Part shown: piece by piece, positions 3,808 through 54,460 of the stretch | Position numbering within the stretch: position 1 is the stretch's first letter | How the letters are laid out: every line of letters begins with the position of its first letter | From: Rhodothermales bacterium | Lineage (GTDB): Bacteria > Bacteroidota > Rhodothermia > Rhodothermales > Bin80 | DNA length: 64,000 bases | Direction: 5' to 3' | NCBI GenBank assembly: GCA_963663495.1 | Contig: OY760427.1 | Span: 2,524,040-2,588,039 of the forward strand | Made by a program: the position numbers and the translations under genes | Notes under the pieces: generated by a model | What the model saw: the letters and a program-made list of their open reading frames with translations, nothing else | Databases searched by the model: none | Told to the model about the DNA's origin: nothing

Positions 3808-3825
3808 CGGCGGCGTGCCATAGCA

Positions 3826-6985: not shown

Positions 6986-6990
6986 GGGAA

Positions 6991-9605: not shown

Positions 9606-9607
9606 CG

Positions 9608-10503: not shown

Positions 10504-10676
10504 CTCTTCCGCCGTACGTCTGGGCTGTACCAGGCGGACGGTCCGGGGTCTGGGTTCTCACGTCTACGGGTAAGCTCTACAGAACCCGTCACCTAATCAA
10601 GATGCAAGTTCACCGCACGCTCACGCAGGTGTAGCCACTGGGGCATAGGCCCACATCAGGCAGGTTGATATGCCAT

Positions 10677-17367: not shown

Positions 17368-19347
17368 TCAGCCAGCCAAAGCGGCTATGGCGAGGGCCGC
17401 AGCCAGTACACGCGCGTTCCCAAAGTCCTGGATGGATGCAACCAGTGCCATCAGCGCCGCATTGCGGCTGTCATCCTCCATTGCTTCCGCATCCGTCAGG
17501 CCTTGGCGCAACTCAGATATTGCATCTGCCCCAAGTGCGCCGGCACGCTCAACCTGGTCTAACCGGGCGTGAGCAAGCACAAACGTGTTCGGCCAACGAT
17601 AGGTCGGCTGACCCTGTGCATTGAGGTACGCCAGCTCAACGGTGTTAGCAGCTGCAATTTCATTCTCTGTCAGGTACTCGCTCGCGGTCAGCGCAAAAAT
17701 GTCCAACCCCCGTGCGATCTCACTGCTGACAATCAGGCCGTTATACCAGTAAACGGACCAACTGCCCCCCATCTCCATGCGCTCGTCCGTCACCGGACCA
17801 CGGTCGTGATACGCGATTTCTATAGGATTTGCGATATCAGTCCAATCCATGAGAGAAATGCCCCCCTGATACCATGACTGCACAAACAGGTCGCGCCCCG
17901 GTACAGGGATCAGCGATCCATTGTGTGCTACACAGTTCTCCTGCGGCGTCTGGGGAGCAGGCAGCTTGTAGTAACTCTGGAACTCCATCTTACCGTCATT
18001 CAGCATAAAGAGCGCATTCGCACCCCACTCCGGCGGGTCTGATGCGCGGCATTTGGGGGCACCACCTCCCCCCCACTCGTCCGTGAACAGAATCTTGGAG
18101 CCATCATTATTAAAGGTGGCACTGTGCCAATAGGCAAAGTTGGAATCCGCTACGGCATCAAGCCTGAACGGATTGACCGGATCTGTGATGTCAAGAAGGA
18201 GCCCATAGCCCTCACACGCTCCCCCAGCAAGTCCGATCTCGGGGTAGAGTGTAATGTCATGGCACTGCGTAGGCCCCGGGTCCGGGGCGTCACTCTCTTC
18301 CTCATTTTCCTCCGCATTCCCCCCCATCATTTCAGCAAAGATTGATGGCAGGGCCTCTCTAAACGCCACGGAATCAGCTGCTGTCGCCGGCCCTTCCTTC
18401 CCTTGAGATTCCAGAAAACTCTCTATCAGACCGGCAACATAACGGTCTGGTAACACCGCTTGCCGGCCGGAGTACTCCACAACAAAGGCACCCGCTGCCC
18501 GCGCCTCTTCAATAGCTTTCACGTCATCGGGCGCCATGCCATGCCTGGGAGGCGCCACAAGCCCCTCAAAAATCCTCGGCGAATTGACGATCGCTGCCAG
18601 CGAAGGATCTGCCAGCGGCACCTGAATCACCTCAATCCGGAATAGCGCAGAATTAGGATCCTCGTCTGGCATCATGCCGGAGCACCCGGGTAGCTCCTCC
18701 GCCGGTCGGACCGGTGCAGAACCGGATACGTAAATGTACACATTCTCGTTGTCGTCCGGGTTCTTGAGCACACTGTGCGTATGAGAACCCCGGCATGTCT
18801 GCACGTTTGCAATATAGTTCGGATTCTGGATGTCGCTGATGTCAAAAATACGAATACCACGCAATCGGTCTGCGCTGACAGCCTCCTGCACGCCCTCGGT
18901 TCCGCAGTCCAGCCTGCCTCCCCGACCTTCACCGGACACAAACAGCAGATTCTCATAGACCGAAACATCACTCTGAGACGCCGGGCACAGATAGTCCTTA
19001 ACTAGCACAGGGACGGCCGGATCTGAAATATCCCAGATCAGCACACCGTTATAATTGCCCTGGATCGCATAGTCCCCCATAAAGGCCAAATCAGAATTGG
19101 TAACGCCAACAAACTGCTCCGGCGGCTGCGTTGTAGAGATATGGCCCAGGTTCCATATTGCTTCACCCGCGTCAAAGAGACCAGGGGCAAGCCCGACACG
19201 AGCATCCGACATCGCAGGCGCCATGTCACCAGCCTCAACAGCGGGATCATCCGTCTGCTGCGCAGTGGCAGTGATGGTAACGAGCATGATGGAGGCAAAC
19301 ACCCCCAGTACCTTGAAATCACTCATATCGTTTAATGTTAATTGCAT
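17368..19347 (-). CDS. Secreted LVIVD-repeat protein
   Basis: Signal peptide, NSDLAF, QSDVSVY, CRGSHTH, CHDIT, AYWHSATFNNDG, ENCVAHNG. Confidence 0.8.
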   Translation of the reverse strand: MQLTLNDMSDFKVLGVFASIMLVTITATAQQTDDPAVEAGDMAPAMSDARVGLAPGLFDAGEAIWNLGHISTTQPPEQFVGVTNSDLAFMGDYAIQGNYNGVLIWDISDPAVPVLVKDYLCPASQSDVSVYENLLFVSGEGRGGRLDCGTEGVQEAVSADRLRGIRIFDISDIQNPNYIANVQTCRGSHTHSVLKNPDDNENVYIYVSGSAPVRPAEELPGCSGMMPDEDPNSALFRIEVIQVPLADPSLAAIVNSPRIFEGLVAPPRHGMAPDDVKAIEEARAAGAFVVEYSGRQAVLPDRYVAGLIESFLESQGKEGPATAADSVAFREALPSIFAEMMGGNAEENEEESDAPDPGPTQCHDITLYPEIGLAGGACEGYGLLLDITDPVNPFRLDAVADSNFAYWHSATFNNDGSKILFTDEWGGGGAPKCRASDPPEWGANALFMLNDGKMEFQSYYKLPAPQTPQENCVAHNGSLIPVPGRDLFVQSWYQGGISLMDWTDIANPIEIAYHDRGPVTDERMEMGGSWSVYWYNGLIVSSEIARGLDIFALTASEYLTENEIAAANTVELAYLNAQGQPTYRWPNTFVLAHARLDQVERAGALGADAISELRQGLTDAEAMEDDSRNAALMALVASIQDFGNARVLAAALAIAALAG

Positions 19348-19358
19348 GGTGCGATCGC

Positions 19359-19970
19359 CTAATCCTCCAGCATTGTCTCCATCCTAGCGATCTCGGTAAT
19401 CTGATCCACGTGTATGGCCGACGCCAGCCTGAACGCTTCCTCGTCCCGTCCTACGCCATCCTGGTCAAAGAGGTCACGCACCATCACCACAGCCCCGTGA
19501 TGGTGCGTGATCATATAGGTCAGAAACAGACGATCAAACTCTGCTCCGTGCGCGTTTCGCAGTTCATCCAACTGCTCCTCAGGCAGCATTCCCGGCATCA
19601 TATGATGATGCGCATGACCAGGCATGTGCCCCCCGGCATGAACCTCCGGGACAGGTTGGTCGCGGTCTCGTAGCCATGTCTGCATGAGCTGAATTTCATC
19701 CTTTTGCGCATTGATGATTCGCGCAGCAAGAACAGATACAGCAGGCCCCGCACCGTTGTTCGGCGCTAGTGCAGACATCACCAAAGCCTGCGCATGGTGC
19801 GCAATCATCCCCGTCATGAAGTCTACCTCCGCCTGCACAAAATGGGACCTGGACTCAGCAATTCGCTGCCAGTACAAAGCCTCCAGGCTATCCTGATCCT
19901 GCGCCCAAAGCGGCTGCGTCAATGCAAACATCAATGCAAAACTTGGCAAGAATCGAATCACAGCTGACAT
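19359..19970 (-). CDS. DUF305 domain protein
   Basis: FMTGMIAHHAQALVMS, FLTYMITHHHGAVVM, QITEIARM. Typical partner of LVIVD genes. Confidence 0.85.
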   Translation of the reverse strand: MSAVIRFLPSFALMFALTQPLWAQDQDSLEALYWQRIAESRSHFVQAEVDFMTGMIAHHAQALVMSALAPNNGAGPAVSVLAARIINAQKDEIQLMQTWLRDRDQPVPEVHAGGHMPGHAHHHMMPGMLPEEQLDELRNAHGAEFDRLFLTYMITHHHGAVVMVRDLFDQDGVGRDEEAFRLASAIHVDQITEIARMETMLED

Positions 19971-20030: not shown

Positions 20031-23000
20031 TCAGAAGGTAGCCGTCATTTGAAGACGGACGGTATGAATCACCGGTAGCGCATCGGGCGCGCGGCCGTTA
20101 TAGTATAGGTTCGCCCTCAGCGCCCGAGTAAGTTGGTACCATGCCGACAGATTCCATAAACGGGACCTTCCAACTCCCCTCCCGTCGGTGAGCTCATAAT
20201 ATGCGAGCCCGGCCGGCAACGCACCATCTACAGCAACCGAGGTCCCTTCAGCGCCCATGCGGATACTGGCCCTCCCAGCAACACTGTACTCCACCGTTAA
20301 GGGAACCCTCCATACGACCGCATCGGATGATATGGCAGCCTTCTGTGCGAGTGCTGCTCCTATGGTCATGCGCCACGCCTCATCAATCGCGATGATTGCT
20401 GTCGGCTCAAGGCGATAGCTTCGAATGTCGTATGCTCGGGAAATAAATGACTGGCTGGTTGCTTGCTGATGCTCCTGCTCCACCTTCACACGCAGGCGAA
20501 CCTGCTTAATGGGAGTCATAAAACCTTCCAATCCCCATGTGTCCACCGCGCGGGAATCGGTACCTGCAGCTAGTGCATTGTGCGTGCGCACTGTCAGCAA
20601 TGATGTACTTATGCCGTAATCGGATTGATTGCGAAAGAGCGACAGCTCGTGCCTGGCTGACAGTAGTCCGCGGATGGAGTAGTCTTCGTGCCTGAATTGA
20701 CTCAGCCGGAACAGATAGATATCAGAAATATGGGGAGTGCTGCTTTTCTCCTGGATCCTCACGATGGTACGCAGAGATATATTGGCAAATCTCCGTAGCC
20801 ACGGCCTCTCCGCTTCCCGCCAGCGGCGCGCAAAATCCATGGTAAGAACCAGCCGTGACTGCATGCCAATCACGCTTTGCAGCGTGTCAGACGGCAGGAG
20901 CGTGCGCACGTAAACGCCCTCATCCTGCGTTGATTCCGGGACGAACTCCGCGACCTGTCGGATGCCGTCTCCATTGTCGTCATTCCAAACATATTCTCCA
21001 ATCTCGGCACCGGTACGAATGTAGATTTCCTGCATCACCGGAGTACGTTCGGACTGCGCATCGTAGTGCCAGTCAAGGCGGAACAAACGCTGCCACGGCT
21101 GCCAGCGTCCCGACCACTGCAGCACCACCGATTCCTCAGCCCTGGAATTCAGAGTGGTCCGGGAACGCCATCCGACCCGGCCCGAGGCCGAAAGAGCGCT
21201 GCGGGGCCTAATGTCATATCCGGTATCAAGGGTCACCCAGCGACCCTTGATACCTCCATCCGCATCCAGGTCCCAACGCACGCGGACTCCGCCGTCAAAC
21301 TCCAATTGATCCTTCTGCCACGACACGCCCGGACGTATCTCATTGTAGGCCTTTGACTTCAATCCTTGTGCCCCCGGTTCGGTTAGCGTCTGCCTGCGGT
21401 TTGAGCGTTTCAATGCGATCAGCGGTACAAAATGTCCCATGGGTCTGGAAACCTGTCCGGATAATCTCGTCCATGAACCACGCTCTCCAAGCACCGGATC
21501 ACGCGTGCGCATAGCCTCCCGACGATACGCGACATGTGGCCACCGTCCTTCCGCAAACTGCATACGAACCTCCGTTCTGTTCCCGGCAAATCCGTCGGGC
21601 AGAGCGATTCTTCCCACCTCCGCGCGGGCTGTTGAGTTCTCCGATAATTCCCACATGAACTTTGCTTCGTTAGTCTCATCCCCGACTGTGCTTCGCCCAG
21701 CAAGACCGCCCAGATGCCATCGGCGTCCAAACTCCACATGACGTATGCGGTCAAGCGGAGAATAGCGGGTACCTATTGACCTTCTCCGCGCCTCAAAGCT
21801 CATGGCACCAAGTCGCCTCGGCCCTAGCCTTCTGGGACGCACGCGTACGCCCGCCACGTATGCCGTACCCTGATCATCATCCTCATGCAGCGCCGAATAA
21901 CGGTTACCATCCAGCCCGGACGAAGCCCATTCCCCAAAAAATTCCACACCTTCAACAACCGCTAAGGCACCTCTCAGGTCAACGATACGCTGCGATTTCG
22001 GCTTGGGGATAGTGCGCCGCGGTACATAGTCCCCACGCCTAGACCCCCTCCAGACAAACAGAACGCCGTTCGTAGCAGCTCCCCTTCGCACATAATCACC
22101 GTTTCCTGTTCCTACATGCGTAAACTGTACGCGATAAACGGGGCCACCGTTGGCTCCTGTAGCGGGAGCGTAGTACTGCAAAGATGCGCCCTCAAATACC
22201 GTGTCGCGAACCGTGTACTGGACAAAGGGCGCATCGGGATCATACGGTACCGGTGTCGCGCTACTGATGTACACCGCCGAATCCCCAGCGGCAGTTAATC
22301 TGGCTAAATCGTCGTCGCTCAAGCCGAACTCCTCCCCAAATGTCCGTCCGTCAGCTTCTCGGAGCATGGCTGCGCCGAACGTAAACCGTGCCTGATCCCC
22401 AACTCTACCAAAGGATCCACGAATATCATTGGCCATGATGGTACGCGTAAACTCGGTTGTACGGTACTGATATTCAGCTCGGATACGGTGGTGATCCCGT
22501 ATGAGCCTCCGCGCCGTGAACGTGATTTCACCCGTTGCATAGTCAATGACGTAGTCCTCGGTTTCTCCCCGTGCAACCTGCCGACCATCCAAGTAAATCG
22601 TCTCAGACCCCGGCACTACAAAAATGAAGCGCTCACCGTTCTGGCCCAGAAGCTTGTACGGCCCTTGTACACCATCGGTAAGCGGGATACTGCTTCTTGT
22701 GTAAACGCCGCGCGCCGTGCCCACCGCGGATTGGACAGTAATGCCTCTGCCACTAGTTGTTACGCCAACGCCCTGCACCTTGCGCGCAAGCCTTGCCAGT
22801 TCAGCATCCTCGTACCGTACATCAATGTCTCCCAATTGAGCCTGCGTCTCGTGCGCATTGATTTCCACATAGACCCGATCAATCTCGCTCAGGCGCTGCG
22901 TTGTGCCTTCAGGAAGGATAGGAGTACTTTCGTCGGTCAACACGGCACGCACATCTACGTTCTCGGCAACCTGCCCTGCAACCTGCAGCCGAAGGCCGGA

Positions 23001-23483
23001 CTCGATCGTCGCATCCTGCCCATTTCCTGCCAGAACACCTCTCGTGATTGACCCCCTGGGTAGCAGCCTGAACTGATCCGAAGGTTCCGCCAGTTCCGTA
23101 GAAGCGATGCTGTCCGGCGGACCGCTGGTTGCGAACTGCCACTGGTAGCGGTCTCGCAGGCCAAGGTCCCATGTTCTGTACTGCACGGCAGCTGATTGCG
23201 ACGAATCAGCGACATCCATCCATAGATACCCTAAACGGTAGTCGATTTTGAAAGAGGTGGAATCACGCCTGGTACCGTTGAGAAAGACTTGCACCGACCC
23301 CGGCACAATAAATGGCCGTAGCGCAAAAGGCTGTATTGCTTGCAGATCCAGTGAATCACTATGCAGACCAAGCAGTGATGTAGCGGTATTCTGGGCGTCT
23401 GCGCTTGTGACCGCCCAAAAGGCTACCGACACGATGCCGATCCATCCCCGAATCGGGGTTAATAACCCAAATAAACTGTGCAA
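20031..23483 (-). CDS. Large conserved exported/outer-membrane hypothetical protein
   Basis: 1150 aa with a signal peptide, SGLRLQVAG...LTDESTPILPEG, DYVIDYATGEITF and a beta-strand-rich C-terminus ending in F. Confidence 0.7.
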   Translation of the reverse strand: MHSLFGLLTPIRGWIGIVSVAFWAVTSADAQNTATSLLGLHSDSLDLQAIQPFALRPFIVPGSVQVFLNGTRRDSTSFKIDYRLGYLWMDVADSSQSAAVQYRTWDLGLRDRYQWQFATSGPPDSIASTELAEPSDQFRLLPRGSITRGVLAGNGQDATIESGLRLQVAGQVAENVDVRAVLTDESTPILPEGTTQRLSEIDRVYVEINAHETQAQLGDIDVRYEDAELARLARKVQGVGVTTSGRGITVQSAVGTARGVYTRSSIPLTDGVQGPYKLLGQNGERFIFVVPGSETIYLDGRQVARGETEDYVIDYATGEITFTARRLIRDHHRIRAEYQYRTTEFTRTIMANDIRGSFGRVGDQARFTFGAAMLREADGRTFGEEFGLSDDDLARLTAAGDSAVYISSATPVPYDPDAPFVQYTVRDTVFEGASLQYYAPATGANGGPVYRVQFTHVGTGNGDYVRRGAATNGVLFVWRGSRRGDYVPRRTIPKPKSQRIVDLRGALAVVEGVEFFGEWASSGLDGNRYSALHEDDDQGTAYVAGVRVRPRRLGPRRLGAMSFEARRRSIGTRYSPLDRIRHVEFGRRWHLGGLAGRSTVGDETNEAKFMWELSENSTARAEVGRIALPDGFAGNRTEVRMQFAEGRWPHVAYRREAMRTRDPVLGERGSWTRLSGQVSRPMGHFVPLIALKRSNRRQTLTEPGAQGLKSKAYNEIRPGVSWQKDQLEFDGGVRVRWDLDADGGIKGRWVTLDTGYDIRPRSALSASGRVGWRSRTTLNSRAEESVVLQWSGRWQPWQRLFRLDWHYDAQSERTPVMQEIYIRTGAEIGEYVWNDDNGDGIRQVAEFVPESTQDEGVYVRTLLPSDTLQSVIGMQSRLVLTMDFARRWREAERPWLRRFANISLRTIVRIQEKSSTPHISDIYLFRLSQFRHEDYSIRGLLSARHELSLFRNQSDYGISTSLLTVRTHNALAAGTDSRAVDTWGLEGFMTPIKQVRLRVKVEQEHQQATSQSFISRAYDIRSYRLEPTAIIAIDEAWRMTIGAALAQKAAISSDAVVWRVPLTVEYSVAGRASIRMGAEGTSVAVDGALPAGLAYYELTDGRGVGRSRLWNLSAWYQLTRALRANLYYNGRAPDALPVIHTVRLQMTATF

Positions 23484-30930: not shown

Positions 30931-32658
30931 ATGTGTTATTGTAGGCTGGCGGTAGTGATAGTGTTCGTGCTGGTGGCAAGTTGTGACAGTGTGTTCGAGC
31001 CAGACATTGGACCTGCACAGTCCGAACATGTCGGTAACGTCCGGCTGTGGTATCAGGAAGCCATGGGCACCTCAAGTCTTGGCAAGGCGGCAGTGGACAG
31101 CACGGAGCTGGCAATTCTTGCTGCACTTGTACGAGAATATCCGCCCGACTGGCAGCAGGCAGTGGCATGGGTGGACGCGGATGGTGGGGTCCATGTAAGC
31201 ACCGTACTTGGATCGGACAAACCGGCTGTAAGCTTTTCTGATTCGAGTGTGTCAGTTGTACGTACCTTTATTGCCGACTTGGATGAAGCAGGAGAGGTAG
31301 AGGGGGCGAGACTGCTTGAGTTTGCCAATGTCCAGAAGCTGGACCCTGCTGATTTTGTGCAGTACCTGGCCATGTGGCTGACAGGCGACTTTGGCGACCT
31401 TACGATGCTTGTTGCAGAGTACAGTATCGGATATGCTGCTAAGCAGGCGGTGTTCTTTAGGCCCGGCAGCAGTGCTGCTGAGCCTGTAGCACTGTCTTTG
31501 GAGCAGAGGAAATCGGCTGGCAAGGCTCCGCCGGATGGTGTGTGGATGTGTTATGTATCGGAATTCAAACGTGGTTGGGAAATCTGCATAGAAGATGTGG
31601 AACCAGGGTTGGGCAAGGTCGGGTGTATTGAAGGCCCTGCCGAGATTGAGTACACATGTATCTATTTCCCTGGTCATAGCGGTGGCGGAGGAGGATCGGG
31701 TGGCGGCCGTGGTGGAGGAGGTGGAGGAGGTGGAGGAGGCGGAGGAGGCAATGATGACGATGACAACGATGACGAGACCAAGCAGGTCGTTTTTGCGCTG
31801 GATTGCGATAAGACCGTAACTCGCGGTAACAACGGCAGCTGCACCGTTACCGCCACGAAAGAAGACGAGCTGGTTGACCTTAGTCAGTACACCTTTAAAT
31901 GGACATCCTCAACAGGTGCAAGCCGTTCCGGCAAAGGTCTTTACACTTGGGGTGGCATCGCGACCGACAAGACAACCGTAAAGGTAGATGTCAGCGGATT
32001 CAGCGATTCCAAGAAGATCAAAGTGACTGCAAGGTCGAACTGGCGTTCAAAAGCAGTACGGGCAGATTGGGTCTATTCAAACAGGTATCCATATGATGGA
32101 TTCTACGAACTGTTTAACAAAGCCTCGCAAGTTCCAGCGCCGGGGGCAGGAACTGGACCTTGGGCGGGGCGATTCTACATGAAGGACCCGCCTGAAGTGC
32201 ACACGACGATACATATACACCACAAATTCGCCCAGTCGGGCCCTGCCTATCCGGGTGCAAATGACACCTGCGCGCGATCATCCACATTACGGGAAAATGA
32301 AACCCACCGGACTGTCAATAATCGCTGTGGCACATCTAAAGAATTGGAATCATATTTCCACATGGTTTTGGCACACGAGCGGGATCACGAGGCCGGAATC
32401 AACGAGTGTCTTACGTCCAGCTCAAAGGCGAAGGACACGATGAAGAAATTAGAAAAGACCGTTGCCAACAGCAGCGCCGACCTGCAGGATAGTGCACAAG
32501 ATTTATGGGAAGAGTTCTATGATAATTCACTGACACAGTCTGGGCTCTCGGGAAAATCCTATGCAAGCCTTGACGAGCACTTCTGGCACTACGGCATTAT
32601 CGGATGGAAGCTCGGTTGGGTTGTAATAGCTACGGAGAAATTAGTTGATAATTGTTAA
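30931..32658 (+). CDS. Lipoprotein with Gly-rich linker, Ig-like middle region and C-terminal HExxH (zincin-like) domain
   Basis: Lipobox VASC, poly-Gly/Asp linker at 31678-31785, AHERDHE motif. Function is inferred only. Confidence 0.65.
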   Translation: MCYCRLAVVIVFVLVASCDSVFEPDIGPAQSEHVGNVRLWYQEAMGTSSLGKAAVDSTELAILAALVREYPPDWQQAVAWVDADGGVHVSTVLGSDKPAVSFSDSSVSVVRTFIADLDEAGEVEGARLLEFANVQKLDPADFVQYLAMWLTGDFGDLTMLVAEYSIGYAAKQAVFFRPGSSAAEPVALSLEQRKSAGKAPPDGVWMCYVSEFKRGWEICIEDVEPGLGKVGCIEGPAEIEYTCIYFPGHSGGGGGSGGGRGGGGGGGGGGGGGNDDDDNDDETKQVVFALDCDKTVTRGNNGSCTVTATKEDELVDLSQYTFKWTSSTGASRSGKGLYTWGGIATDKTTVKVDVSGFSDSKKIKVTARSNWRSKAVRADWVYSNRYPYDGFYELFNKASQVPAPGAGTGPWAGRFYMKDPPEVHTTIHIHHKFAQSGPAYPGANDTCARSSTLRENETHRTVNNRCGTSKELESYFHMVLAHERDHEAGINECLTSSSKAKDTMKKLEKTVANSSADLQDSAQDLWEEFYDNSLTQSGLSGKSYASLDEHFWHYGIIGWKLGWVVIATEKLVDNC

Positions 32659-32669
32659 ATGGTGACGCA

Positions 32670-33341
32670 ATGAAGATGAAAACGATGTTGTTATTGTTCA
32701 TCCTGATTCCGGTCGGACTCCGGGCGCAATCGAACGGTCTGATGTTTAAGGACGGCGAATGGCAAAAACCGACGCCTGCTGCGGCTCTACGCGCATTCGA
32801 GGCAGACCCAAACGGCGATTCTGACGATTCCGATAAGCCCATCCTTGCCGTATTGCGCCAACGATATCAAGCGTTCACGGATGAAGAGCTGAACGCACTA
32901 GCCGAGAACCTCGTAGTAATGATTCGCGAAGGAACGCCTGAGCAAGCGTATAATGCGTTTGTTGTGCTGCTCTTTTCTGGCCGGCGACAGTTCGCCCCCA
33001 GTGAAGATACCCCATACGCGGGAGCAAAAGATATATTTATTCGCCTGTACGAGTCAGGCCTGGACAGAAGATCAGAGGGTAAGGGATTTTCCATAACCTG
33101 GAAATCCGCACTGCGGGGTGTTTACTCTGCCGGTGGATACGATTACGTTCGGAACCTGTTCGGAGCGAGTGAACTGCCGCCCCCTTGCCAATATCAACTA
33201 AGACGCCCGGTTGAAAATCCGTGCCCGAATAAGGGCACTTGGTGCGATGCCGGATTGATATTGTTGTCAAAAGAAGACGAGCATGCACCAGACAGCGAGC
33301 TGTGGCGCAGGCGCTGCGGCCAACCTAGGATAGGTTTTTAG
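32670..33341 (+). CDS. Secreted Cys-containing partner protein, copy 1
   Basis: Signal peptide MKMKTMLLLFILIPVGLRA|Q. Starts 11 nt after the lipoprotein stop. Confidence 0.75.
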   Translation: MKMKTMLLLFILIPVGLRAQSNGLMFKDGEWQKPTPAAALRAFEADPNGDSDDSDKPILAVLRQRYQAFTDEELNALAENLVVMIREGTPEQAYNAFVVLLFSGRRQFAPSEDTPYAGAKDIFIRLYESGLDRRSEGKGFSITWKSALRGVYSAGGYDYVRNLFGASELPPPCQYQLRRPVENPCPNKGTWCDAGLILLSKEDEHAPDSELWRRRCGQPRIGF

Positions 33342-33570
33342 GTCCATGTAGGAGATGCTGGAATGCAAGCAGCTGCACTGGTGATGGCCGCATTTATGAC
33401 TCTGGACGCAAACGGACGGCATATTGCTTACGGAGGGCGCAAAGTAAACGCCCACACCTACTTTAATGCTTCGTGCAATCAAGGTAGAACCGAGGGAAGG
33501 CAGACCTAGGCCTACCGTTCAACCGGTACCCCTACTTAACATTGTAATTCATGCCGCTTAGATTGGCGGC

Positions 33571-34809
33571 ATGGTGGTTCAACATCAGAATCTGAAGACA
33601 CTGCGTGCCGCTCCATGTGAGTTGACAGAGGTCATGGAGCAGCATCCTGACGATGGTCGCACAGCGATAAGTCGCCGTGTGAGTGAAACGTTTGGCTTTT
33701 ATGATGCCTTAGGGCGTGTGCAGCACAGCAGTTGTTTGCAGGCGCTCAAGACACTCGAAGCCGAGGGGGCGCTGTCCTTACCTACACCGAAGCGCGTGGT
33801 CCGAAGCACAGTGCCTCGTTTGTTGGACGAACCGGTACCTGCGCCTGTTGGAGTGCCGACATTGCTCAAGGATGTGCGCGGCCTGGAGTTGGAATTGGTA
33901 GAAGATGCCGGGCAGCGTGCGATCTGGAATACGCTTGTGGAGGCCGAGCATCCGTTGTGTGCGCCACGGTTTGCCGGACGGCAGTTGCGCTATCTTGTCG
34001 GGAGCGAGCATGGCTACATCGGAGCGATAGGCTTTGCGGCTGCGGCGCTGTATCTGAAGGCGCGCGACAGATGGATGGCGTGGTCGGACGAGCAGCGTGA
34101 GGACTACCGGGACCATGTCGTGGGTTTGAATCGGTTCCTGATTCGCTCCATGGTGCGGATCAGGAACCTTGCCAGCCATACATTGGGGAAGGTATTGCGT
34201 CGTTTTCCGGAGGATTTTGAGAACCGTTCAAACAGGTATCCATATGATGGATTCTACGAACTGTTTAACAAAGCCTCGCAAGTTCCAGCGCCGGGGGCAG
34301 GAACTGGACCTTGGGCGGGGCAATTCTACATGAAGGACCCGCCTGAAGTGCACACGACGATACATATACACCACAAATTCTCCCAGTCGGGCCCTGCCTA
34401 TCCGGGTGCAAATGACACCTGCGCGCGATCATCCACATTACGGGAAAATGAAACCCACCGGACTGTCAATAATCGCTGTGGCACATCTAAAGAATTGGAA
34501 TCATATTTCCACATGGTTTTGGCACACGAGCGGGATCACGAGGCCGGAATCAACGAGTGTCTTACGTCCAGCTCAAAGGCGAAGGACACGATGAAGAAAT
34601 TAGAAAAGACCGTTGCCAACAGCAGCGCCGACCTGCAGGATAGTGCACAAGATTTATGGGAAGAGTTCTATGATAATTCACTGACACAGTCTGGGCTCTC
34701 GGGAAAATCCTATGCAAGCCTTGACGAGCACTTCTGGCACTACGGCATTATCGGATGGGAGCTCGGTTGGGTTGGAATAGCTACGGAGAAATTAGTTGAT
34801 AATTGTTAA
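33571..34809 (+). CDS. Chimeric DUF4338(IS4)-HExxH ORF, copy 1
   Basis: The first ~220 aa match the IS4 at 41457-42575. From SNRYPYDG onward it matches the lipoprotein C-terminus. Confidence 0.75.
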   Translation: MVVQHQNLKTLRAAPCELTEVMEQHPDDGRTAISRRVSETFGFYDALGRVQHSSCLQALKTLEAEGALSLPTPKRVVRSTVPRLLDEPVPAPVGVPTLLKDVRGLELELVEDAGQRAIWNTLVEAEHPLCAPRFAGRQLRYLVGSEHGYIGAIGFAAAALYLKARDRWMAWSDEQREDYRDHVVGLNRFLIRSMVRIRNLASHTLGKVLRRFPEDFENRSNRYPYDGFYELFNKASQVPAPGAGTGPWAGQFYMKDPPEVHTTIHIHHKFSQSGPAYPGANDTCARSSTLRENETHRTVNNRCGTSKELESYFHMVLAHERDHEAGINECLTSSSKAKDTMKKLEKTVANSSADLQDSAQDLWEEFYDNSLTQSGLSGKSYASLDEHFWHYGIIGWELGWVGIATEKLVDNC

Positions 34810-34820
34810 ATGGTGACGCA

Positions 34821-35474
34821 ATGAAGATGAAAACGATGTTGTTATTGTTCATCCTGATTCCGGTCGGACTCCGGGCGCAATCGAACGGTCTGATGTTTAA
34901 GGACGGCGAATGGCAAAAACCGACGCCTGCTGCGGCTCTACGCGCATTCGAGGCAGACCCAAACGGCGATTCTGACGATTCCGATAAGCCCATCCTTGCC
35001 GTATTGCGCCAACGATATCAAGCGTTCACGGATGAAGAGCTGAACGCACTAGCCGAGAACCTCGTAGTAATGATTCGCGAAGGAACGCCTGAGCAAGCGC
35101 ATAATGCGTTTGATGTGCTGCTCTTTTCTGGCCGGCCACAGTTCGCCCCCAGTGAAGATACCCCATACGCGGGAGCAAAAGATATATTTATTCGCCTGTA
35201 CGAGTCAGGCCTGGACAGAAGATCAGACGGTCTAACCAGGAAAGTCGCACTGCTGGGTGTTTACTCTGCCGGTGGATACGATTACGTTCGGAACCTGTTC
35301 GGAGCGAGTGAACTGCCGCCCCCTTGCCAATATCAACTAAGGCGTTCGGTTGAAAATCCGTGCCCGAATAAGGGCACTTGGTGCGATGCCGGATTGATAT
35401 TGTTGTCAAATGAAGACGAGCATGCACCAGACAGCGAGCTGTGGCGCAGGCGCTGCGGCCAACCTAGGAGATAG
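34821..35474 (+). CDS. Secreted partner protein, copy 2
   Basis: Paralog of 32670-33341 with a variant central region and a 2-nt insertion at the extreme C-terminus. Confidence 0.75.
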   Translation: MKMKTMLLLFILIPVGLRAQSNGLMFKDGEWQKPTPAAALRAFEADPNGDSDDSDKPILAVLRQRYQAFTDEELNALAENLVVMIREGTPEQAHNAFDVLLFSGRPQFAPSEDTPYAGAKDIFIRLYESGLDRRSDGLTRKVALLGVYSAGGYDYVRNLFGASELPPPCQYQLRRSVENPCPNKGTWCDAGLILLSNEDEHAPDSELWRRRCGQPRR

Positions 35475-35711
35475 GTTTTTAGGTCCATGTAGGAGATGCT
35501 GGAATGCAAGCAGCTGCACTGGTGATGGCCGCATTTATGACTCTGGACGCAAACGGACGGCATATTGCTTACGGAGGGCGCAAAGTAGACGCCCACACCT
35601 ACTTTAATGCTCCGTGCAATCAAGGTAGAACCGAGGGAAGGCAGACCTAGGCCTACCGTTCAACCGGTACCCCTACTTAACTTTATAATTCATGCCGCTT
35701 AGATTGGCGGC

Positions 35712-36950
35712 ATGGTGGTTCAACATCAGATTCTGAAGACACTGCGTGCCGCTCCATGTGAGTTGACAGAGGTCATGGAGCAGCATCCTGACGATGGTCG
35801 CACAGCGATAAGTCGCAGTGTGAGTGAAGCGTTTGGCTTTTATGATGCCTTAGGGCGTGTGCAGCACAGCAGTTGTTTGCAGGCGCTCAAGACACTCGAA
35901 GCCGAGGGTGCGCTGTCCTTGCCTGCACCGAAGCGCGTGGTCCGAAGCGCTGTGCCTCGTTTGTTGGACGAACCGGTACCTGCGCCTGTTGGAGTGCCGA
36001 CGTTGCTCAAGGATGTGCGCGGCCTGGAGTTGGAATTGGTAGAAGATGCCGGGCAGCGTGCGATCTGGAATACGCTTGTGGAGGCCGAGCATCCGATGTG
36101 TGCGCCACGGTTTGCCGGGCGGCAGTTGCGCTATCTTGTCGGGAGCGAGCATGGCTACATCGGAGCGATAGGCTTTGCGGCTGCAGCGCTGTATCTGAAG
36201 GCGCGCGACAGATGGATGGCGTGGTCGGACGAGCAGCGTGAGGACTACCGGGACCATGTCGTGGGTTTGAATCGGTTCCTGATTCGCTCCATGGTGCGGA
36301 TCAGGAACCTTGCCAGCCATACACTGGGGAAGGTATTGCGTCGTTTTCCGGAGGATTTTGAGAACCGTTCAAACAGGTATCCATATGATGGATTCTACGA
36401 ACTGTTTAACAAAGCCTCGCAAGTTCCAGCGCCGGGGGCAGGAACTGGGCCTTGGGCGGGGCGATTCTACATGAAGGACCCGCCTGAAGTGCACACGACG
36501 ATACATATACACCACAAATTCTCCCAGTCGGGCCCTGCCTATCCGGGTGCAAATGACACCTGCGCGCGATCATCCACATTACGGGAAAATGAAACCCACC
36601 GGACTGTCAATAATCGCTGTGGCACATCTAAAGAATTGGAATCATATTTCCACATGGTTTTGGCACACGAGCGGGATCACGAGGCCGGAATCAACGAGTG
36701 TCTTACGTCCAGCTCAAAGGCGAAGGACACGATGAAGAAATTAGAAAAGACCGTTGCCAACAGCAGCGCCGACCTGCAGAATAGTGCACAAGATTTATGG
36801 GAAGAGTTCTATGATAATTCACTGACACAGTCTGGGCTCTCGGGAAAATCCTATGCAAGCCTTGACGAGCACTTCTGGCACTACGGCATTATCGGATGGG
36901 AGCTCGGTTGGGTTGGAATAGCTACGGAGAAATTAGTTGATAATTGTTAA
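35712..36950 (+). CDS. Chimeric DUF4338(IS4)-HExxH ORF, copy 2
   Basis: As copy 1. Confidence 0.75.
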   Translation: MVVQHQILKTLRAAPCELTEVMEQHPDDGRTAISRSVSEAFGFYDALGRVQHSSCLQALKTLEAEGALSLPAPKRVVRSAVPRLLDEPVPAPVGVPTLLKDVRGLELELVEDAGQRAIWNTLVEAEHPMCAPRFAGRQLRYLVGSEHGYIGAIGFAAAALYLKARDRWMAWSDEQREDYRDHVVGLNRFLIRSMVRIRNLASHTLGKVLRRFPEDFENRSNRYPYDGFYELFNKASQVPAPGAGTGPWAGRFYMKDPPEVHTTIHIHHKFSQSGPAYPGANDTCARSSTLRENETHRTVNNRCGTSKELESYFHMVLAHERDHEAGINECLTSSSKAKDTMKKLEKTVANSSADLQNSAQDLWEEFYDNSLTQSGLSGKSYASLDEHFWHYGIIGWELGWVGIATEKLVDNC

Positions 36951-36961: not shown

Positions 36962-37630
36962 ATGAAGATGAAAACGATGTTGTTATTGTTCATCCTGATT
37001 CCGGTCGGACTCCGGGCGCAATCGAACGGTCTGATGTTTAAGGACGGCGAATGGCAAAAACCGACGCCTGCTGCGGCTCTACGCGCATTCGAGGCAGACC
37101 CAAACGGCGCTGACGATTCCGATAAGCCCATCCTTGCCGTATTGCGCCAACGATATCAAGCGTTCACGGATGAAGAGCTGAACGCACTAGCCGAGAACCT
37201 CGTAGTAATGATTCGCGAAGGAACGCCTGAGCAAGCGGATAATGCGTTTGATGTGCTGCTCTTTTCTGGCCGGCGACAGTTCGCCCCCAGTGAAGATACC
37301 CCATACGCGGGAGCAAAAGATATATTTATTCGCCTGTACGAGTCAGGCCTGGACAGAAGATCAGAGGGTAAGGGATTTTCCATAACCTGGAAATCCGCAC
37401 TGCAGGGTGTTTACTCTGCCGGTGGATACGATTACGTTCGGAACCTGTTCGGAGCGAGTGAACTGCCGCCCCCTTGCCAATATCAACTAAGGCGTCCGGT
37501 TGAAAATCCGTGCCCGAATAAGGGCACTTGGTGCGATGCCGGATTGATATTGTTGTCAAATGAAGACGAGCATGCACCAGACAGCGAGCTGTGGCGCAGG
37601 CGCTGCGGCCAACCTAGGATAGGTTTTTAG
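36962..37630 (+). CDS. Secreted partner protein, copy 3
   Basis: Paralog with a 3-nt in-frame deletion. Confidence 0.75.
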   Translation: MKMKTMLLLFILIPVGLRAQSNGLMFKDGEWQKPTPAAALRAFEADPNGADDSDKPILAVLRQRYQAFTDEELNALAENLVVMIREGTPEQADNAFDVLLFSGRRQFAPSEDTPYAGAKDIFIRLYESGLDRRSEGKGFSITWKSALQGVYSAGGYDYVRNLFGASELPPPCQYQLRRPVENPCPNKGTWCDAGLILLSNEDEHAPDSELWRRRCGQPRIGF

Positions 37631-37859
37631 GTCCATGTAGGAGATGCTGGAATGCAAGCAGCTGCACTGGTGATGGCCGCATTTATGACTCTGGACGCAA
37701 ACGGACGGCATATTGCTTACGGAGGGCGCAAAGTAAACGCCCACACCTACTTTAATGCTTCGTGCAATCAAGGTAGAACCGAGGGAAGGCAGACCTAGGC
37801 CTACCGTTCAACCGGTACCCCTACTTAACTTTATAATTCATGCCGCTTAGATTGGCGGC

Positions 37860-39098
37860 ATGGTGGTTCAACATCAGATTCTGAAGACACTGCGTGCCGC
37901 TCCATGTGAGTTGACAGAGGTCATGGAACAGCATCCGGACGATGGTCGCACAGCGATAAGTCGCCGTGTGAGTGAAGCGTTTGGCTTTTATGATGCCTTA
38001 GGGCGTGTGCAGCACAGCAGTTGTTTGCAGGCGCTCAAGACACTCGAAGCCGAGGGGGCGCTGTCCTTACCTACACCGAAGCGCGTGGTCCGAAGCACAG
38101 TGCCTCGTTTGTTGGACGAACCGGTACCTGCGCCTGTTGGAGTGCCGACATTGCTCAAGGATGTGCGCGGCCTGGAGTTGGAATTGGTAGAAGATGCCGG
38201 GCAGCGTGCGATCTGGAATACGCTTGTGGAGGCCGAGCATCCGTTGTGTGCGCCACGGTTTGCCGGACGGCAGTTGCGCTATCTTGTCGGGAGCGAGCAT
38301 GGCTACATCGGAGCGATAGGCTTTGCGGCTGCGGCGCTGTATCTGAAGGCGCGCGACAGATGGATGGCGTGGTCGGACGAGCAGCGTGAGGACTACCGGG
38401 ACCATGTCGTGGGTTTGAATCGGTTCCTGATTCGCTCCATGGTGCGGATCAGGAACCTTGCCAGCCATACATTGGGGAAGGTATTGCGTCGTTTTCTGGA
38501 GGATTTTGAGAACCGTTCAAACAGGTATCCATATGATGGATACTGCGAACTGTTTAACAAAGCCTCACAAGTTCCAGCGCCGGGGGCAGGAACTGGGCCT
38601 TGGGCGGGGCGATTCTACATGAAGGACCCGCCTGAAGTGCACACGACGATACATATACACCACAAATTCGCCCAGTCGGGCCCTGCCTATCCGGGTGCAA
38701 ATGACACCTGCGCGCGATCATCCACATTACGGGAAAATGAAACCCACCGGACTGTCAATAATCGCTGTGGCACATCTAAAGAATTGGATTCATATTTCCT
38801 CATGGTTTTGGCACACGAGCGGGATCACGAGGCCGGAATCAACGAGTGTCTTACGTCCAGCTCAAGGGCAAAGGACACGATGAAGAAATTAGAAAAGACC
38901 GTTGCCAACAGCAGCACCGACCTGCAGGATAGTGCACAAGATTTATGGGAAAAGTTCTATGATAATTCACTGACACAGTCTGGGCTCTCGGGAAAATCCT
39001 ATGCAAGCCTTGACGAGCACTTCTGGTACTACGGCATTATCGGATGGGAGCTCGGTTGGGTTGGAATAGCTACGGAGAAATTAGTTGATAATTGTTAA
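37860..39098 (+). CDS. Chimeric DUF4338(IS4)-HExxH ORF, copy 3
   Basis: As copy 1. Confidence 0.75.
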   Translation: MVVQHQILKTLRAAPCELTEVMEQHPDDGRTAISRRVSEAFGFYDALGRVQHSSCLQALKTLEAEGALSLPTPKRVVRSTVPRLLDEPVPAPVGVPTLLKDVRGLELELVEDAGQRAIWNTLVEAEHPLCAPRFAGRQLRYLVGSEHGYIGAIGFAAAALYLKARDRWMAWSDEQREDYRDHVVGLNRFLIRSMVRIRNLASHTLGKVLRRFLEDFENRSNRYPYDGYCELFNKASQVPAPGAGTGPWAGRFYMKDPPEVHTTIHIHHKFAQSGPAYPGANDTCARSSTLRENETHRTVNNRCGTSKELDSYFLMVLAHERDHEAGINECLTSSSRAKDTMKKLEKTVANSSTDLQDSAQDLWEKFYDNSLTQSGLSGKSYASLDEHFWYYGIIGWELGWVGIATEKLVDNC

Positions 39099-39109: not shown

Positions 39110-39763
39110 ATGAAGATGAAAACGATGTTGTTATTGTTCATCCTGATTCCGGTCGGACTCCGGGCGCAATCGAACGGTCTGATGTTTAAGGACGGCGAAT
39201 GGCAAAAACCGACGCCTGCTGCGGCTCTACGCGCATTCGAGGCAGACCCAAACGGCGATTCTGACGATTCCGATAAGCCCATCCTTGCCGTATTGCGCCA
39301 ACGATATCAAGCGTTCACGGATGAAGAGCTGAACGCACTAGCCGAGAACCTCGTAGTAATGATTCGCGAAGGAACGCCTGAGCAAGCGCATAATGCGTTT
39401 GATGTGCTGCTCTTTTCTGTCCGGCGACAGTTCGCTGAAGATACCCCATACGCGGGAGCAAAAGATATATTTATTCGCCTGTACGAGTCAGGCCTGGACA
39501 GAAGATCAGACGGTCTAACCTGGAAAGCCGCACTGCAGGGTGTTTACTCTGCCGGTGGATACGATTACGTTCGGAACCTGTTCGGAGCGAGTGAACTGCC
39601 GCCCCCTTGCCAATATCAACTAAGACGCCCGGTTGAAAATCCGTGCCCGAATAAGGGCACTTGGTGCGATGCCGGATTGATATTGTTGTCAAATGAAGAC
39701 GAGCATGCACCAGACAGCGAGCTGTGGCGCAGGCGCTGCGGCCAACCTAGGATAGGTTTTTAG
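39110..39763 (+). CDS. Secreted partner protein, copy 4
   Basis: Paralog that is 6 nt and 12 nt shorter at two in-frame positions than copy 1. Confidence 0.75.
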   Translation: MKMKTMLLLFILIPVGLRAQSNGLMFKDGEWQKPTPAAALRAFEADPNGDSDDSDKPILAVLRQRYQAFTDEELNALAENLVVMIREGTPEQAHNAFDVLLFSVRRQFAEDTPYAGAKDIFIRLYESGLDRRSDGLTWKAALQGVYSAGGYDYVRNLFGASELPPPCQYQLRRPVENPCPNKGTWCDAGLILLSNEDEHAPDSELWRRRCGQPRIGF

Positions 39764-39933
39764 GTCCATGTAGGAGATGCTGGAATGCAAGCAGCTGCAC
39801 TGGTGATGGCCGCATTTATGACTCTGGACGCAAACGGACGGCATATTGCTTACGGAGGGCGCAAAGTAGACGCCCACACCTACTTTAATGCTCCGTGCAA
39901 TCAAGGTAGAACCGAGGGAAGGCAGACCTAGGC

Positions 39934-42634
39934 CTACCGTGCGCCCAGTTCAGATACCAGACACTGTATAATATTTGTCTGTTTTTGCAAGTTTGGTGTA
40001 GTGATTGGTTCTTTCAAGAGGTGCGGAGCCCTCGGACCGGAGTGATGCTTGCACCGGGGATGCGGGAAACGTAGCATCATTTGGCATGCGCGAGGCGCTT
40101 GCCTATGCGATGGACATACGTCGGCGCTATAACGCCCGGTAGCTCTGGCGTCTTTACAGTTCTCTTCCAAATCCCCGTTGCCATCGCACTAAACGTTGGC
40201 GCGGCAACGACGCTGGGGGGCAGGTATCACTCCCGGCTTTGGGTACGTTTATTGCTTCGCGTGCTCGTCATTCTCGCTTAACGATGAGAACTTCTCTCCG
40301 TATCATATGGTATCGCTTCTCAAGGACGGCAAAGGTCTTGGCCCCTATCTCCAACCGGCTGTAGCCGCGCCAGATGACCTTGGAGCCTGGAGGCCGGTCC
40401 TTCTTCCGATCCATATAGCCACCAAAGACGGCCACCACCCGAATAGCAGCCCCGAGTGTCTTTGGAGGCGGCAGTCCAAACTCGTCGGCAAGCTCGTGCA
40501 ACAGGCGCAGTTCCATCTCATCAAACAATCCTTCCGGCGACGCTTCGGGTTCCTCGCGCCCCAGAAGCGTCATCAATAGCAGGCGCCACGCCATCACCAT
40601 ACAGATCGTAATGGCATTGTGCAGACTCTTGGCCTGCCGCATACCCAGCCGCTCTACCGCACAGCCGCTCTTGAGCACACGGAACATGTCTTCCACACGC
40701 CACCGCAACACGTAGTAGCCTACCACCTCAATAGCTTGCTCCAGCGTCGTAACCTCTTGGGTCGTCAATAGATACCACTGTACCGGTCGCTCTCCGGCTG
40801 GCGGCTGCACCTCCCGAACATGAATCGCACTGACCTGCACCGGATCCTCCTGCGACTTACCCGGCGCCGGAAGCGATAGGCGGCGGAAACGTACCTGCAT
40901 CCGCGCCAGACGGCCCGACCGCCCCTTATGCTTGACTCGACCTGACTTCACGCGGCGGCTCAAACGAGCAATCGGCACTTCCATGTGTCCTGCCGGACGG
41001 CCCGACCGCATGGTCGCAAACAACTTGGGAGACTTTTTACCCAATAGCCGATTCACCTTGGCTCGCACCAATATGTCCACACGCCCTGCGCTGCGCTGCT
41101 GCGCCAGGATCGCAAACACATCCGCCTCGCGGTCCATGACACACAGCACACGGGTACGACCACTCAGATGCGAGGCGGCTTCCGCTATGTCCCGCACGCC
41201 GTCTATCCATAACTGTGTCTTAGGAGCAGGAGCCTCTTGGTCGGTTGTATAGGCACAGCGTAAGATCCCCAACGGCACACCGTCCTCACCCACCGCCAGC
41301 GTAGCGTGCAAATGCACTCCTTTTGCCTTTGATGTGGTCTGATTGTGCCCTATCACATCCAACCCCTCGCACGCCGGACGAGTACTGTAGCTGATGTCCG
41401 TGCCATCCTGGATGCACAGCACCGTCCGTTGCGTACGCATCCGCTCTATCGTGCGATCACGATGCGGCTGCAAAATCTTCTCCGGCGTGATCTCGTTCTC
41501 GGCCGCTTTCTCCAAAAAACGGTAGTATCCCCGCCCGATCAGCGTCCAGATTGGCCGTGATCAATTCTCCTGGAGTGCGTGAAAGCATGGCCACGCTGTG
41601 TACCAACTGGTCCGAACGGCGTTTGTCCCCCAACGGCGCTCCACCAAACTCCTGTTCTGCCCATGTATCACTGGCCAGCCCCGCACCCACCTCCAGCTCG
41701 GGATACGCCTCCACAACCGGCACTCCAAGCTCCTGCCTCCAATCACCACCCAGATCATACACGAAAACCGCCTTCTTCTCTTTGGTGCATGCATTACCAG
41801 GAGCATGACGCCCACGCCCCTTGGTTTTTCCCACACACTGAAACCCCGCAGCCCGAAAACACGTGCCGCGATGTTCGGGGCTCACAAAGGTCTCTATCAC
41901 CCACGGCACATACCCGTAATCGTTCTCAAAATCCTCCGGTAAACGACGCAATACCTTCCCCAGTGTATGGCTGGCAAGGTTCCTGATCCGCACCATGGAG
42001 CGAATCAGGAACCGATTCAAACCCACGACATGGTCCCGGTAGTCCTCACGCTGCTCGTCCGACCACGCCATCCATCTGTCGCGCGCCTTCAGATACAGCG
42101 CCGCAGCCGCAAAGCCTATCGCTCCGATGTAGCCATGCTCGCTCCCGACAAGATAGCGCAACTGCCGTCCGACAAACCGTGGCGCACACATCGGATGCTC
42201 GGCCTCCACAAGCGTATTCCAGATCGCACGCTGCCCGGCATCTTCTACCAATTCCAACTCCAGGCCGCGCACATCCTTGAGCAATGTCGGCACTCCAACA
42301 GGCGCAGGTACCGGTTCGTCCAACAAACGAGGCACTGTGCTTCGGACCACGCGCTTCGGTGCAGGCAAGGACAGCGCACCCTCGGCTTCGAGTGTCTTGA
42401 GCGCCTGCAAACAACTGCTGTGCTGCACACGCCCTAAGGCATCATAAAAGCCAAACGCTTCACTCACACGGCGACTTATCGCTGTACGACCATCGTCAGG
42501 ATGCTGCTCCATGACCTCTGTCAACTCACATGGAGCGGCACGCAGTGTCCTCAGAATCTGATGTTGAACCACCATGCCGCCAATCTAAGCGGCATGAATT
42601 GCAAAGTCAAGTAGGGGTACCGGTTTAACGGTAG
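39934..42634 (-). mobile_element. Full-length DUF4338-IS4 element
   Basis: Imperfect 18-bp TIRs starting CTACCGT. 8-bp TSD ACCTAGGC at 39926-39933 and 42635-42642. Confidence 0.9.
40268..42575 (-). pseudogene. DUF4338-IS4 transposase, frameshifted
   Basis: Split into 41457-42575 and 40268-41515 at DADRA/GYYRFL. DDE residues in IQDGT, MDREAD and RWRVEDMFRVLKSGC. Confidence 0.85.
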
Positions 42635-42797
42635 ACCTAGGCGGCGACTTCCAGGATGCACTGCGACACCGCGCCGACGAAATCAAGAGCTCCCAACCAC
42701 AGAATCGGATGTTCGCCGAGAACTCTCCAAAACGGGTTCTCAAAGGCACATCGGAGCAAACAAATGCTCCGTCCACCGGCCTATTCTGACATGCGCA

Positions 42798-54459: not shown

Positions 54460-54460
54460 C

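Follow-up and report, generated by a model that had tools for sequence, protein, structure and literature searches.

Tandem amplification of an unannotated secreted protein gene in a Rhodothermales bacterium, with candidate diversifying selection on a predicted binding surface

Orphan modules of C-terminal toxins and their immunity genes, located downstream of rhs and cdiA genes, were reportedly described by Poole et al. in 2011. Tandem gene amplifications are likewise said to pass through innovation, amplification and divergence, a course associated with Bergthorsson, Andersson and Roth in 2007 and with Nasvall et al. in 2012. The locus analyzed here lies in a 64,000-nucleotide stretch of the genome of a Rhodothermales bacterium (assembly GCA_963663495.1, contig OY760427.1, positions 2,524,040 to 2,588,039), which is referred to as the window and whose own numbering is used throughout. 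Between 30931 and 39763 on the + strand, it comprises an open reading frame (ORF) for a 575-aa lipoprotein-like protein, the gene of a small secreted protein directly behind it (the partner, copy c1) and three further units, each made of a 412-aa ORF and another partner copy (c2, c3 and c4). One segment of the partner gene, codons 94-149, differs among the four copies exclusively by changes that alter the protein. The explanation favored here, with slightly better than even confidence, is diversifying selection on a predicted binding surface after amplification, accompanied by gene conversion among the copies.

In type VII secretion loci, tandem and non-identical paralogues of the immunity genes esaG and tipC stand beside the toxin gene, and recombination shapes the array (PMC9484751). 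The present locus resembles these arrays in its tandem paralogues of a small partner gene 3' of the paired gene, in the near-identical blocks around variable segments and in the traces of recombination. Unlike them, it encodes no protein of a known toxin or immunity family and has no linked secretion system; moreover, the array is young (95-98% protein identity) and derives from a duplication at the junction of an insertion sequence (IS), which also copied a toxin-less gene fragment. The layout of the rhs and cdiA orphan modules is similar as well: a full gene with its partner is followed by repeats of a 5'-truncated fragment, which here encodes the C-terminal (CT) domain of the lipoprotein, each with a partner and with transposase remnants in between. 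Those modules normally represent different, horizontally acquired toxin types, whereas the CT fragments described here are near-identical duplicates that are fused in frame to a transposase N-terminus, and it is the N-terminal part of the lipoprotein, rather than the CT domain, that is less conserved across taxa. One feature of toxin-immunity systems is present, namely a partner gene directly 3' of the CT-coding end across taxa (10 of 16 loci). Searches of Pfam and NCBIfam detected neither a recognized toxin family nor a trafficking domain in the lipoprotein or its CT domain and, with no known toxin family, trafficking domain or activity, the locus cannot be filed as a toxin-immunity system.

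Partner c1 (32670-33341, +; 223 aa) has a signal peptide, an all-alpha core and four conserved cysteines, and comparison of the copies delimits its hypervariable patch to 32949-33116. The other copies, all on the + strand, are c2 (34821-35474, 217 aa, patch 35100-35255), c3 (36962-37630, 222 aa, patch 37238-37405) and c4 (39110-39763, 217 aa, patch 39389-39538); c1 and c3 are of type A, c2 and c4 of type B. An alignment of the four units revealed ten variable sites in the patch, corresponding to 12 inferred changes, all of them non-synonymous. Three states among the four copies occur in each of three codons: codon 94 (TAT/CAT/GAT, Y/H/D; T/C/G/C at 32949), codon 146 (TCC/GTC/GCC, S/V/A; 33105-33106) and codon 149 (R/L/Q; G/T/A at 33115). 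The remaining sites are 32962 (T/A, codon 98, V/D), 32980 (G/T, G104V in c4), 32986 (G/C, R106P in c2), 33077 (GAG/GAC, E/D136), 33093 (ATA/CTA, I/L142) and 33099 (T/A, W144R in c2). A 12-nt indel at 33081-33092 is present in c1 and c3 and missing from c2 and c4, and the patch of c4 carries a 6-nt deletion (c1 equivalent 32996-33001), whose misalignment produces an apparent synonymous change from GCC to GCT at codon 109. Every codon difference and indel that an initial annotation of this DNA had reported was found in its place; its list of patch variants was correct and incomplete, as it omitted the sites in codons 136 and 142.

The rest of the repeated unit varies far less. Variable sites number 10 in the 168 bp of the patch, 0 in the 279 bp of partner codons 1-93, 4 in the remaining 225 bp of the partner, 2 in 177 bp of spacer and 16 in the 583 bp of the CT part. 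The initial annotation had described the roughly 90 codons before the patch as identical apart from one 3-nt deletion, and this description is accurate: codons 1-93 are free of substitutions and differ only by a 3-nt deletion in c3, which converts DS to A near codon 50. From codon 150 to the end, two non-synonymous and two synonymous true substitutions are found. The three indels within the partner ORFs, of 3, 6 and 12 nt, are all multiples of three, and the only out-of-frame event is a 2-nt insertion in c2 (35468-35469) that alters the last three codons (PRIGF to PRR). Hence, apart from 2 nt at the extreme 3' end, the partner reading frames are kept while one segment changes fast.

The clustering of changes in the patch is real and moderately to strongly significant. 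In a scan statistic, the densest 168-bp window reaches p=0.006 within the partner gene and p=0.015 by events across the whole 1443-bp unit. The 12 changes at 126 non-synonymous sites of the patch compare with 7 changes at 459 sites, synonymous or in the spacer, within the four-copy region (odds ratio 6.8, p=8e-5), with 16 at 618 sites if synonymous sites of the IS fragments are included among the proxies (odds ratio 4.0, p=9e-4) and with 2 at 385 non-synonymous sites in the rest of the partner (p=2e-6). That 12 of 12 patch changes are non-synonymous has a probability of p=0.03, or of about 0.002 if constraint acts on approximately half of the non-synonymous sites, a proportion suggested by the family alignment. 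Two sites of the patch are triallelic (p ~0.04-0.05), and its transition:transversion ratio of 3:9 differs from 16:6 elsewhere (Fisher p=0.012).

Neither Pfam nor NCBIfam contains a family that matches the partner, which carries a Sec-type signal peptide (MKMKTMLLLFILIPVGLRA followed by Q). An exhaustive profile search assembled a family of 190 cluster representatives. These proteins are 210-300 aa long, carry signal peptides and share four conserved cysteines as well as the motifs PTPxxAL, AVLRQ, ELDAFA, GTPYAGA, FIRxYES, GGxDYVRxLF, PPxC, ENPCPN and WCDAG. The profile of 38 family members matches the designed armadillo-repeat proteins (ArmRPs) 4rv1 (E=7.6e-10) and 4hxt (E=3.6e-6) at profile positions 81-147, and one member has a weak HEAT_2 match. 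An AlphaFold2 (AF2) model computed from the family alignment is all-alpha, with a predicted local distance difference test (pLDDT) score of 85.7 and helices at residues 71-87, 90-104, 119-128, 144-153 and 157-166. In a Foldseek comparison of this model with the PDB, armadillo and HEAT proteins headed the list, none of them significantly (best E=0.18, TM score at most 0.37). Profile similarity and the helical model together suggest that the partner is an armadillo/HEAT-like alpha-solenoid.

H3-type helix positions form the binding groove in ArmRPs and are the usual ligand-binding face of armadillo and HEAT proteins. The patch of the partner runs from helix 90-104 through loop 105-118, helix 119-128 and loop 129-143 into the beginning of helix 144-153, and an alignment by hidden Markov model (HMM) places residues 94 and 98 and residues 142 and 146 at equivalent positions of two successive H3-type helices. 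The variable residues are exposed, have an entropy of about 3 bits across the family and alternate with the invariant core columns A96, L100 and L148, which are spared by the changes, as are TPYAGA and FIRLYES. Residues 104-111 and 136-141 belong to loops, and residues 138-143 form an insertion unique to this genome. In the AF2 model and the HMM alignment, the sites that the initial annotation had assigned to a binding surface therefore map to outward-facing, family-variable positions of two H3-type helices and to loops. Similarity to ArmRPs (4rv1, 4hxt) and importin-alpha is given by the profile match over ~67 residues, the all-alpha model and the location of the variable residues on H3-type helices. 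Unlike these proteins, the partner is a bacterial, secreted protein of 220 aa without a significant Foldseek whole-fold match, which has about two repeat-like units, an N-terminal part of beta-hairpin and helix and a C-terminal disulfide-rich part.

The copies are embedded in units of ~2.14 kb (partner start-to-start distances of 2151, 2141 and 2148 bp). One amplified unit consists of 580 bp from the 3' end of the lipoprotein gene, the whole partner gene, the spacer and the 720-bp 5' end of an IS4-family IS, and the partner is the sole complete gene inside it. About 1443 bp (32076-33518 in c1 coordinates), with 32 variable sites, are common to all four units. The spacer after c1 (33342-33504, +) recurs after c2, c3 and c4 (to 39927). 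The IS 5' fragments lie at 33505-34224, 35646-36365 and 37794-38513 (+), the first with its terminal repeat CCTAGGCCTACCGT at 33505-33518 and the transposase start at 33571. Each is continued into a chimeric 412-aa ORF (33571-34809, 35712-36950 and 37860-39098, +), in which the N-terminal ~220 aa of the transposase are joined in frame to CT copies c2, c3 and c4, respectively; the chimeras have no signal peptide.

IS nucleotide 720 is fused in frame to the lipoprotein gene at the identical point in three units (34225/34226 and equivalents), and this recurrence of a single join indicates tandem amplification with one illegitimate join. Copies 1 and 3 are set against copies 2 and 4 at sites 33077-33105, by the 12-nt indel and at the two spacer sites, and IS fragments 1 and 3 are nearly identical. 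Together, these features point to an ABAB higher-order repeat. All three 2:2 patterns (12 versus 34, 13 versus 24, 14 versus 23) are present among the copies, which implies that segments have been exchanged between them. As read from these sequences, the starting point was an IS4-family IS downstream of a two-gene module, the HExxH lipoprotein gene followed by that of the secreted armadillo/HEAT-like partner. An illegitimate join of IS nucleotide 720 to the middle of the lipoprotein gene then led to tandem duplication and to four units in ABAB order, whose copies have been kept almost identical outside the patch, partly by gene conversion or unequal exchange among units. Innovation-amplification-divergence is matched by the single illegitimate join in every unit, the amplification of one whole gene and the amino-acid divergence at a putative functional surface; unlike the model cases, the locus is a natural one.

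The 575-aa protein (30931-32658, +; ORF and translation) combines a signal peptide and lipobox (LVAS followed by C) with an N-terminal domain, a poly-Gly/Asp linker, an Ig-like segment and the C-terminal CT domain of ~192 aa, which starts at 32080 and contains the sequence HERDHEAGINE. The CT copies of the array differ at 16 of 583 nt, with 13 non-synonymous and 3 synonymous changes (pN/pS 1.19). In the CT copy of c4 (38520-39095), 9 private substitutions are found over 576 bp (7 non-synonymous, 2 synonymous), whereas the flanking 660-bp IS fragment has 3 and the c4 partner has 1; the excess could reflect an older, unhomogenized segment or the drift of an orphan fragment. A homologue search with the whole protein was swamped by the poly-Gly linker and a k-mer search with the CT domain returned no homologue; homologues were obtained only via synteny, in loci derived from partner searches. 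Seven CT domains compared in this way share GTGPW, several cysteines, an HE+xHExG..CL motif and, 22 residues beyond the second His, an invariant Glu; H99, E100, H103, E104, G106 and E125 are invariant across these seven domains from different genomes. The motif possibly constitutes a gluzincin-like metal site, with the conserved residues as putative metal ligands. Pfam and NCBIfam searches with the lipoprotein, its homologues and the CT alignment yielded no family, and a PDB sequence search with the CT domain found no match.

A 10-sequence subset of the partner family, whose full alignment is too diverse for this purpose, was used to scan GTDB representative genomes and returned 16 loci in Rhodothermales and Gemmatimonadota metagenome-assembled genomes (MAGs). 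In 10 of them, a lipoprotein homologue with Ig-like segment and CT domain is located directly upstream of the partner and ends 10-60 nt before it. In five loci with enough upstream flank, the lipoprotein gene is missing, and the partner is in some cases present as a tandem pair of paralogues (L001, L005 and L016). These 'orphan' tandem pairs of Gemmatimonadota, located at 8871-9584 and 10001-10753 in L001 (~41% identity), at 4764-5345 and 6001-6591 in L016 and at 6001-6681 and 8528-9187 in L005, have no lipoprotein gene within 6-10 kb. Another locus, L014, contains three tandem partner paralogues of 75-85% identity, of which one pair has a converted segment. Here the region equivalent to the patch shows a dN of 0.35 compared to 0.08 in the flanks and an omega of 0.49-0.62 compared to 0.16-0.26. 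In the single-copy orthologues of L002 and L003, the column equivalent to codon 94 again reads Y versus D. As the L014 array is elevated and the L002/L003 pair is not, fast change belongs to multi-copy arrays and not permanently to the family. Within L014 (Rhodothermales MAG, 6867-10816), the middle paralogue is interrupted by an IS1595-type zinc-ribbon transposase gene, a DNA methyltransferase-like ORF and a third ORF; this insertion may be a mobile restriction-modification unit, and the 3' remnant of the interrupted partner is at 10709-10816.

Under the favored reading, selection after amplification would favor copies with different binding surfaces, and the outcome would be a small repertoire of binding specificities. 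The ligand might be the HExxH domain of the neighboring lipoprotein or the variants of that domain carried by competitors, and the partner would act as a periplasmic inhibitor or immunity-like protein. On the basis of conserved gene adjacency only, the HExxH domain is the most likely ligand. More specifically, and considerably more tentatively, lipoprotein and partner might constitute a module for antagonism or protease inhibition, so far undescribed, in Rhodothermales and Gemmatimonadota. Its specificity would be conferred by the H3-type groove, and the locus would be a case in which adaptive divergence followed amplification.

The initial annotation had already proposed that diversifying selection acts on a binding surface. 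This is the best-supported reading and gains from a non-synonymous rate in the patch above that of neutral proxies, from the lack of synonymous changes and from the exposed, family-variable positions of the sites. The counts are small, and several observations weigh against it. The tests rest on four sequences and 12 changes, the patch window was picked post hoc, after the data had been seen, and counting unique sites in the whole-unit scan gives p=0.098. Four substitutions are combined with the 12-nt indel in a single A/B haplotype block (33077-33105), which may represent one or two complex events and thus fewer independent events than counted. Gene conversion that homogenized the rest of the unit could have lowered neutral divergence and inflated the contrast with the patch, and the c4 copy of the CT domain, with its 9 private changes (1.6%), hints that the age of the array is underestimated. 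In the comparison of L002 with L003, omega in the patch-equivalent region is 0.15, not above that elsewhere, and by this comparison the partner family does not seem to be under constant diversifying selection. Finally, the four-copy array is known from one assembly only, and the single-sequence AF2 model of the CT domain is unusable (pLDDT 35).

Neutral drift is the main rival of diversifying selection and is considered unlikely, although its share is far from negligible. It holds that weakly constrained surface and loop positions diverged freely while conversion homogenized the rest of the unit, the patch having escaped by chance. The variable sites are indeed the least conserved columns of the family, mosaic site patterns demonstrate conversion, the private changes and pN/pS of ~1 of the c4 CT domain indicate that some segments are older or less homogenized, and orthologue omega in the patch region is low. 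Drift would explain where the changes are located, but neither why none of the 12 changes is synonymous (p=0.03) nor why three codons have three states each among four copies, and the transversion-rich spectrum of the patch differs from that of the rest of the unit (p=0.012). The persistence of a divergent island in a homogenizing array suggests selection against homogenization. Conversion from a diverged paralogue was rejected as source of the patch: the nearest non-self relatives are at most 45% identical, and no synonymous differences were imported. An artifact, with strain variants of a lower-copy locus laid out in tandem by the assembler or with errors of sequencing or consensus, is given very little probability. 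Tandem repeats of 2.1 kb are hard to assemble, and metagenome scans with an exact 29-mer and with peptide patterns uncovered no close relative or strain variant of the locus to set beside the one assembly. The IS/CT junction, however, is present in triplicate and flanked on either side by private differences, the A/B alternation extends into spacer and IS fragment and, unlike errors, the indels keep the frame and the substitutions spare conserved residues and synonymous sites.

Two programmed sources of variation can be set against the same data. Similarly slight is the probability of a cassette mechanism of the vls or pilS kind, with c2-c4 as donors for segmental conversion into an expressed c1. 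Such a mechanism is suggested by an array that adjoins the only unit with native promoter context, by variation limited to a segment between identical flanks and by the mosaic 2:2 patterns, which point to conversion. Yet none of the four copies is a truncated silent cassette, each being a complete ORF with its own start codon and signal peptide, there are three donors only, and the array stems from a recent IS-junction amplification. No recombination-promoting elements (G-quadruplexes, repeats) were seen near the patch, and a scan for promoter and terminator consensus sequences was uninformative, as counts did not exceed those expected from shuffled sequence. Hypermutation by a diversity-generating retroelement (DGR), which the initial annotation had named as an alternative in the form of A-to-N mutagenesis, was rejected, and the version with reverse transcriptase and template repeat beyond the window is regarded as extremely improbable. 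Local, multi-allelic and non-synonymous variation in a (here predicted) ligand-binding protein is shared with DGRs, and multi-allelic positions, exclusively non-synonymous changes and richness in transversions look like random replacement at fixed template positions. However, the four copies agree throughout at 36 A and 34 T columns of the patch, an outcome with a probability of ~3e-7 even at 90% retention per adenine per copy, and the allele sets of the variable columns (AT, GT, CG, CGT, AC, CT and AGT) have no base in common; specificity for adenine, or for T, is thus missing. Pfam scans of all ORFs of at least 150 aa in the window found no reverse transcriptase domain, and a blastn search of the window with 32900-33160 as query (word size 7, E up to 10) retrieved only the four gene copies, in agreement with the initial annotation, which had seen neither component. 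It had also remarked that a DGR leaves the indels unexplained; the in-frame indels do not fit this mechanism, nor does a variable region in the middle of the gene and not at its C-terminal end, and four separate genes vary here rather than one.

A more exotic possibility would be that the patch is fed by a local mutational process other than a DGR, driven for example by a hairpin or by template switching. The insert, AAGGGATTTTCC(A), and TGGAAATCC, which follows a few bases downstream, are reverse complements of each other (33081-33107 and also 37370-37396). The hairpin of insert and TGGAAATCC has a folding energy of -5.4 to -7.2 kcal/mol (z -1.3 to -2.3) in type A, whereas type B forms no fold. 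An origin of the 12-nt insertion from a hairpin or a template switch is only suggestive.

The array ends at a full-length, inverted IS4-family IS (39928-42641, -) with a transposase split into two ORFs, 41457-42575 (DruA and Tnp_DNA_bind) and 40268-41515 (DDE_Tnp_1 and Tn5 dimerization domain). Its assignment is based on NF033590 (E=2.7e-85) and on the domains DDE_Tnp_1, Dimer_Tnp_Tn5 and Tnp_DNA_bind. The IS fragments of the array are 97.8% identical to its 5' end (42641-41922), and the 14-bp terminal sequence CCTAGGCCTACCGT is found at both IS ends. In all four units, the spacer meets the terminal repeat at the same nucleotide, the orientation of the IS being reversed in c4. No target-site duplication surrounds 39928-42641, where the flanks differ (…aaggcaga and cggcgactt…), a finding consistent with rearrangement after insertion. 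The inverted full IS at the c4 spacer suggests a later rearrangement, such as a deletion between the 14-bp terminal repeats of two opposed IS copies. Changes among the IS fragments (7 non-synonymous, 9 synonymous) are mostly confined to one block of the middle fragment, which looks like an import from a different IS copy.

Over their N-terminal 220 aa, the 412-aa ORFs match Pfam DruA/DUF4338. A Druantia or defense reading of these ORFs was rejected, as the DruA-like part is the first 220 aa of the IS4 transposase, of which the full copy is the inverted element described above. In the IS4-family transposases of the window, an N-terminal DruA/DUF4338 domain precedes Tnp_DNA_bind, DDE_Tnp_1 and the Tn5 dimerization domain. 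Copies of this family in the window include an intact one, the 769-aa transposase relative at 10677-12986 (-), the one in two ORFs and a 3'-end fragment at 3818-4135 (94% over 319 bp). For annotation, this means that DruA matches here flag the N-termini of IS4 transposases and not Druantia defense genes.

Further mobile elements populate the window, of which the first 13 kb are very IS-rich. Genes similar to TnpB/IS605 OrfB (OrfB_IS605 with a Cas12f1-like TNB domain) are located at 51291-52265 (+), 6991-8238 (-) and 3385-3864 (-), the first of them inside an arginine biosynthesis cluster with an argG-like gene (48739-49941) and an argC-like gene (49934-50968) that continues at 52295-56334 with aminotransferase, OTCase, kinase and M20 genes. 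Transposase remnants (IS110 DEDD type; DUF772/IS5-like) are present at 2705-3355 (+) and 5068-5910 (-). A 443-aa protein with Schlafen AlbA_2 and HATPase_c_4 domains is encoded between mobile elements at 8346-9677 (-). At 20031-23483 (-), an 1150-aa ORF without Pfam match is found next to the genes of an LVIVD-repeat protein (17368-19347) and a DUF305 protein (19359-19970).

The evolutionary pattern is of a known kind and involves two unannotated protein families. The locus represents a clean natural case of tandem amplification at an IS junction, followed by divergence of one complete gene. If diversifying selection is the correct explanation, the four natural variants would mark the specificity-determining surface of an unannotated family of ~190 clusters, for which there is no Pfam or NCBIfam model and which pairs with an equally unannotated family of HExxH lipoproteins. 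The four variants would then constitute a ready panel for binding or neutralization assays.

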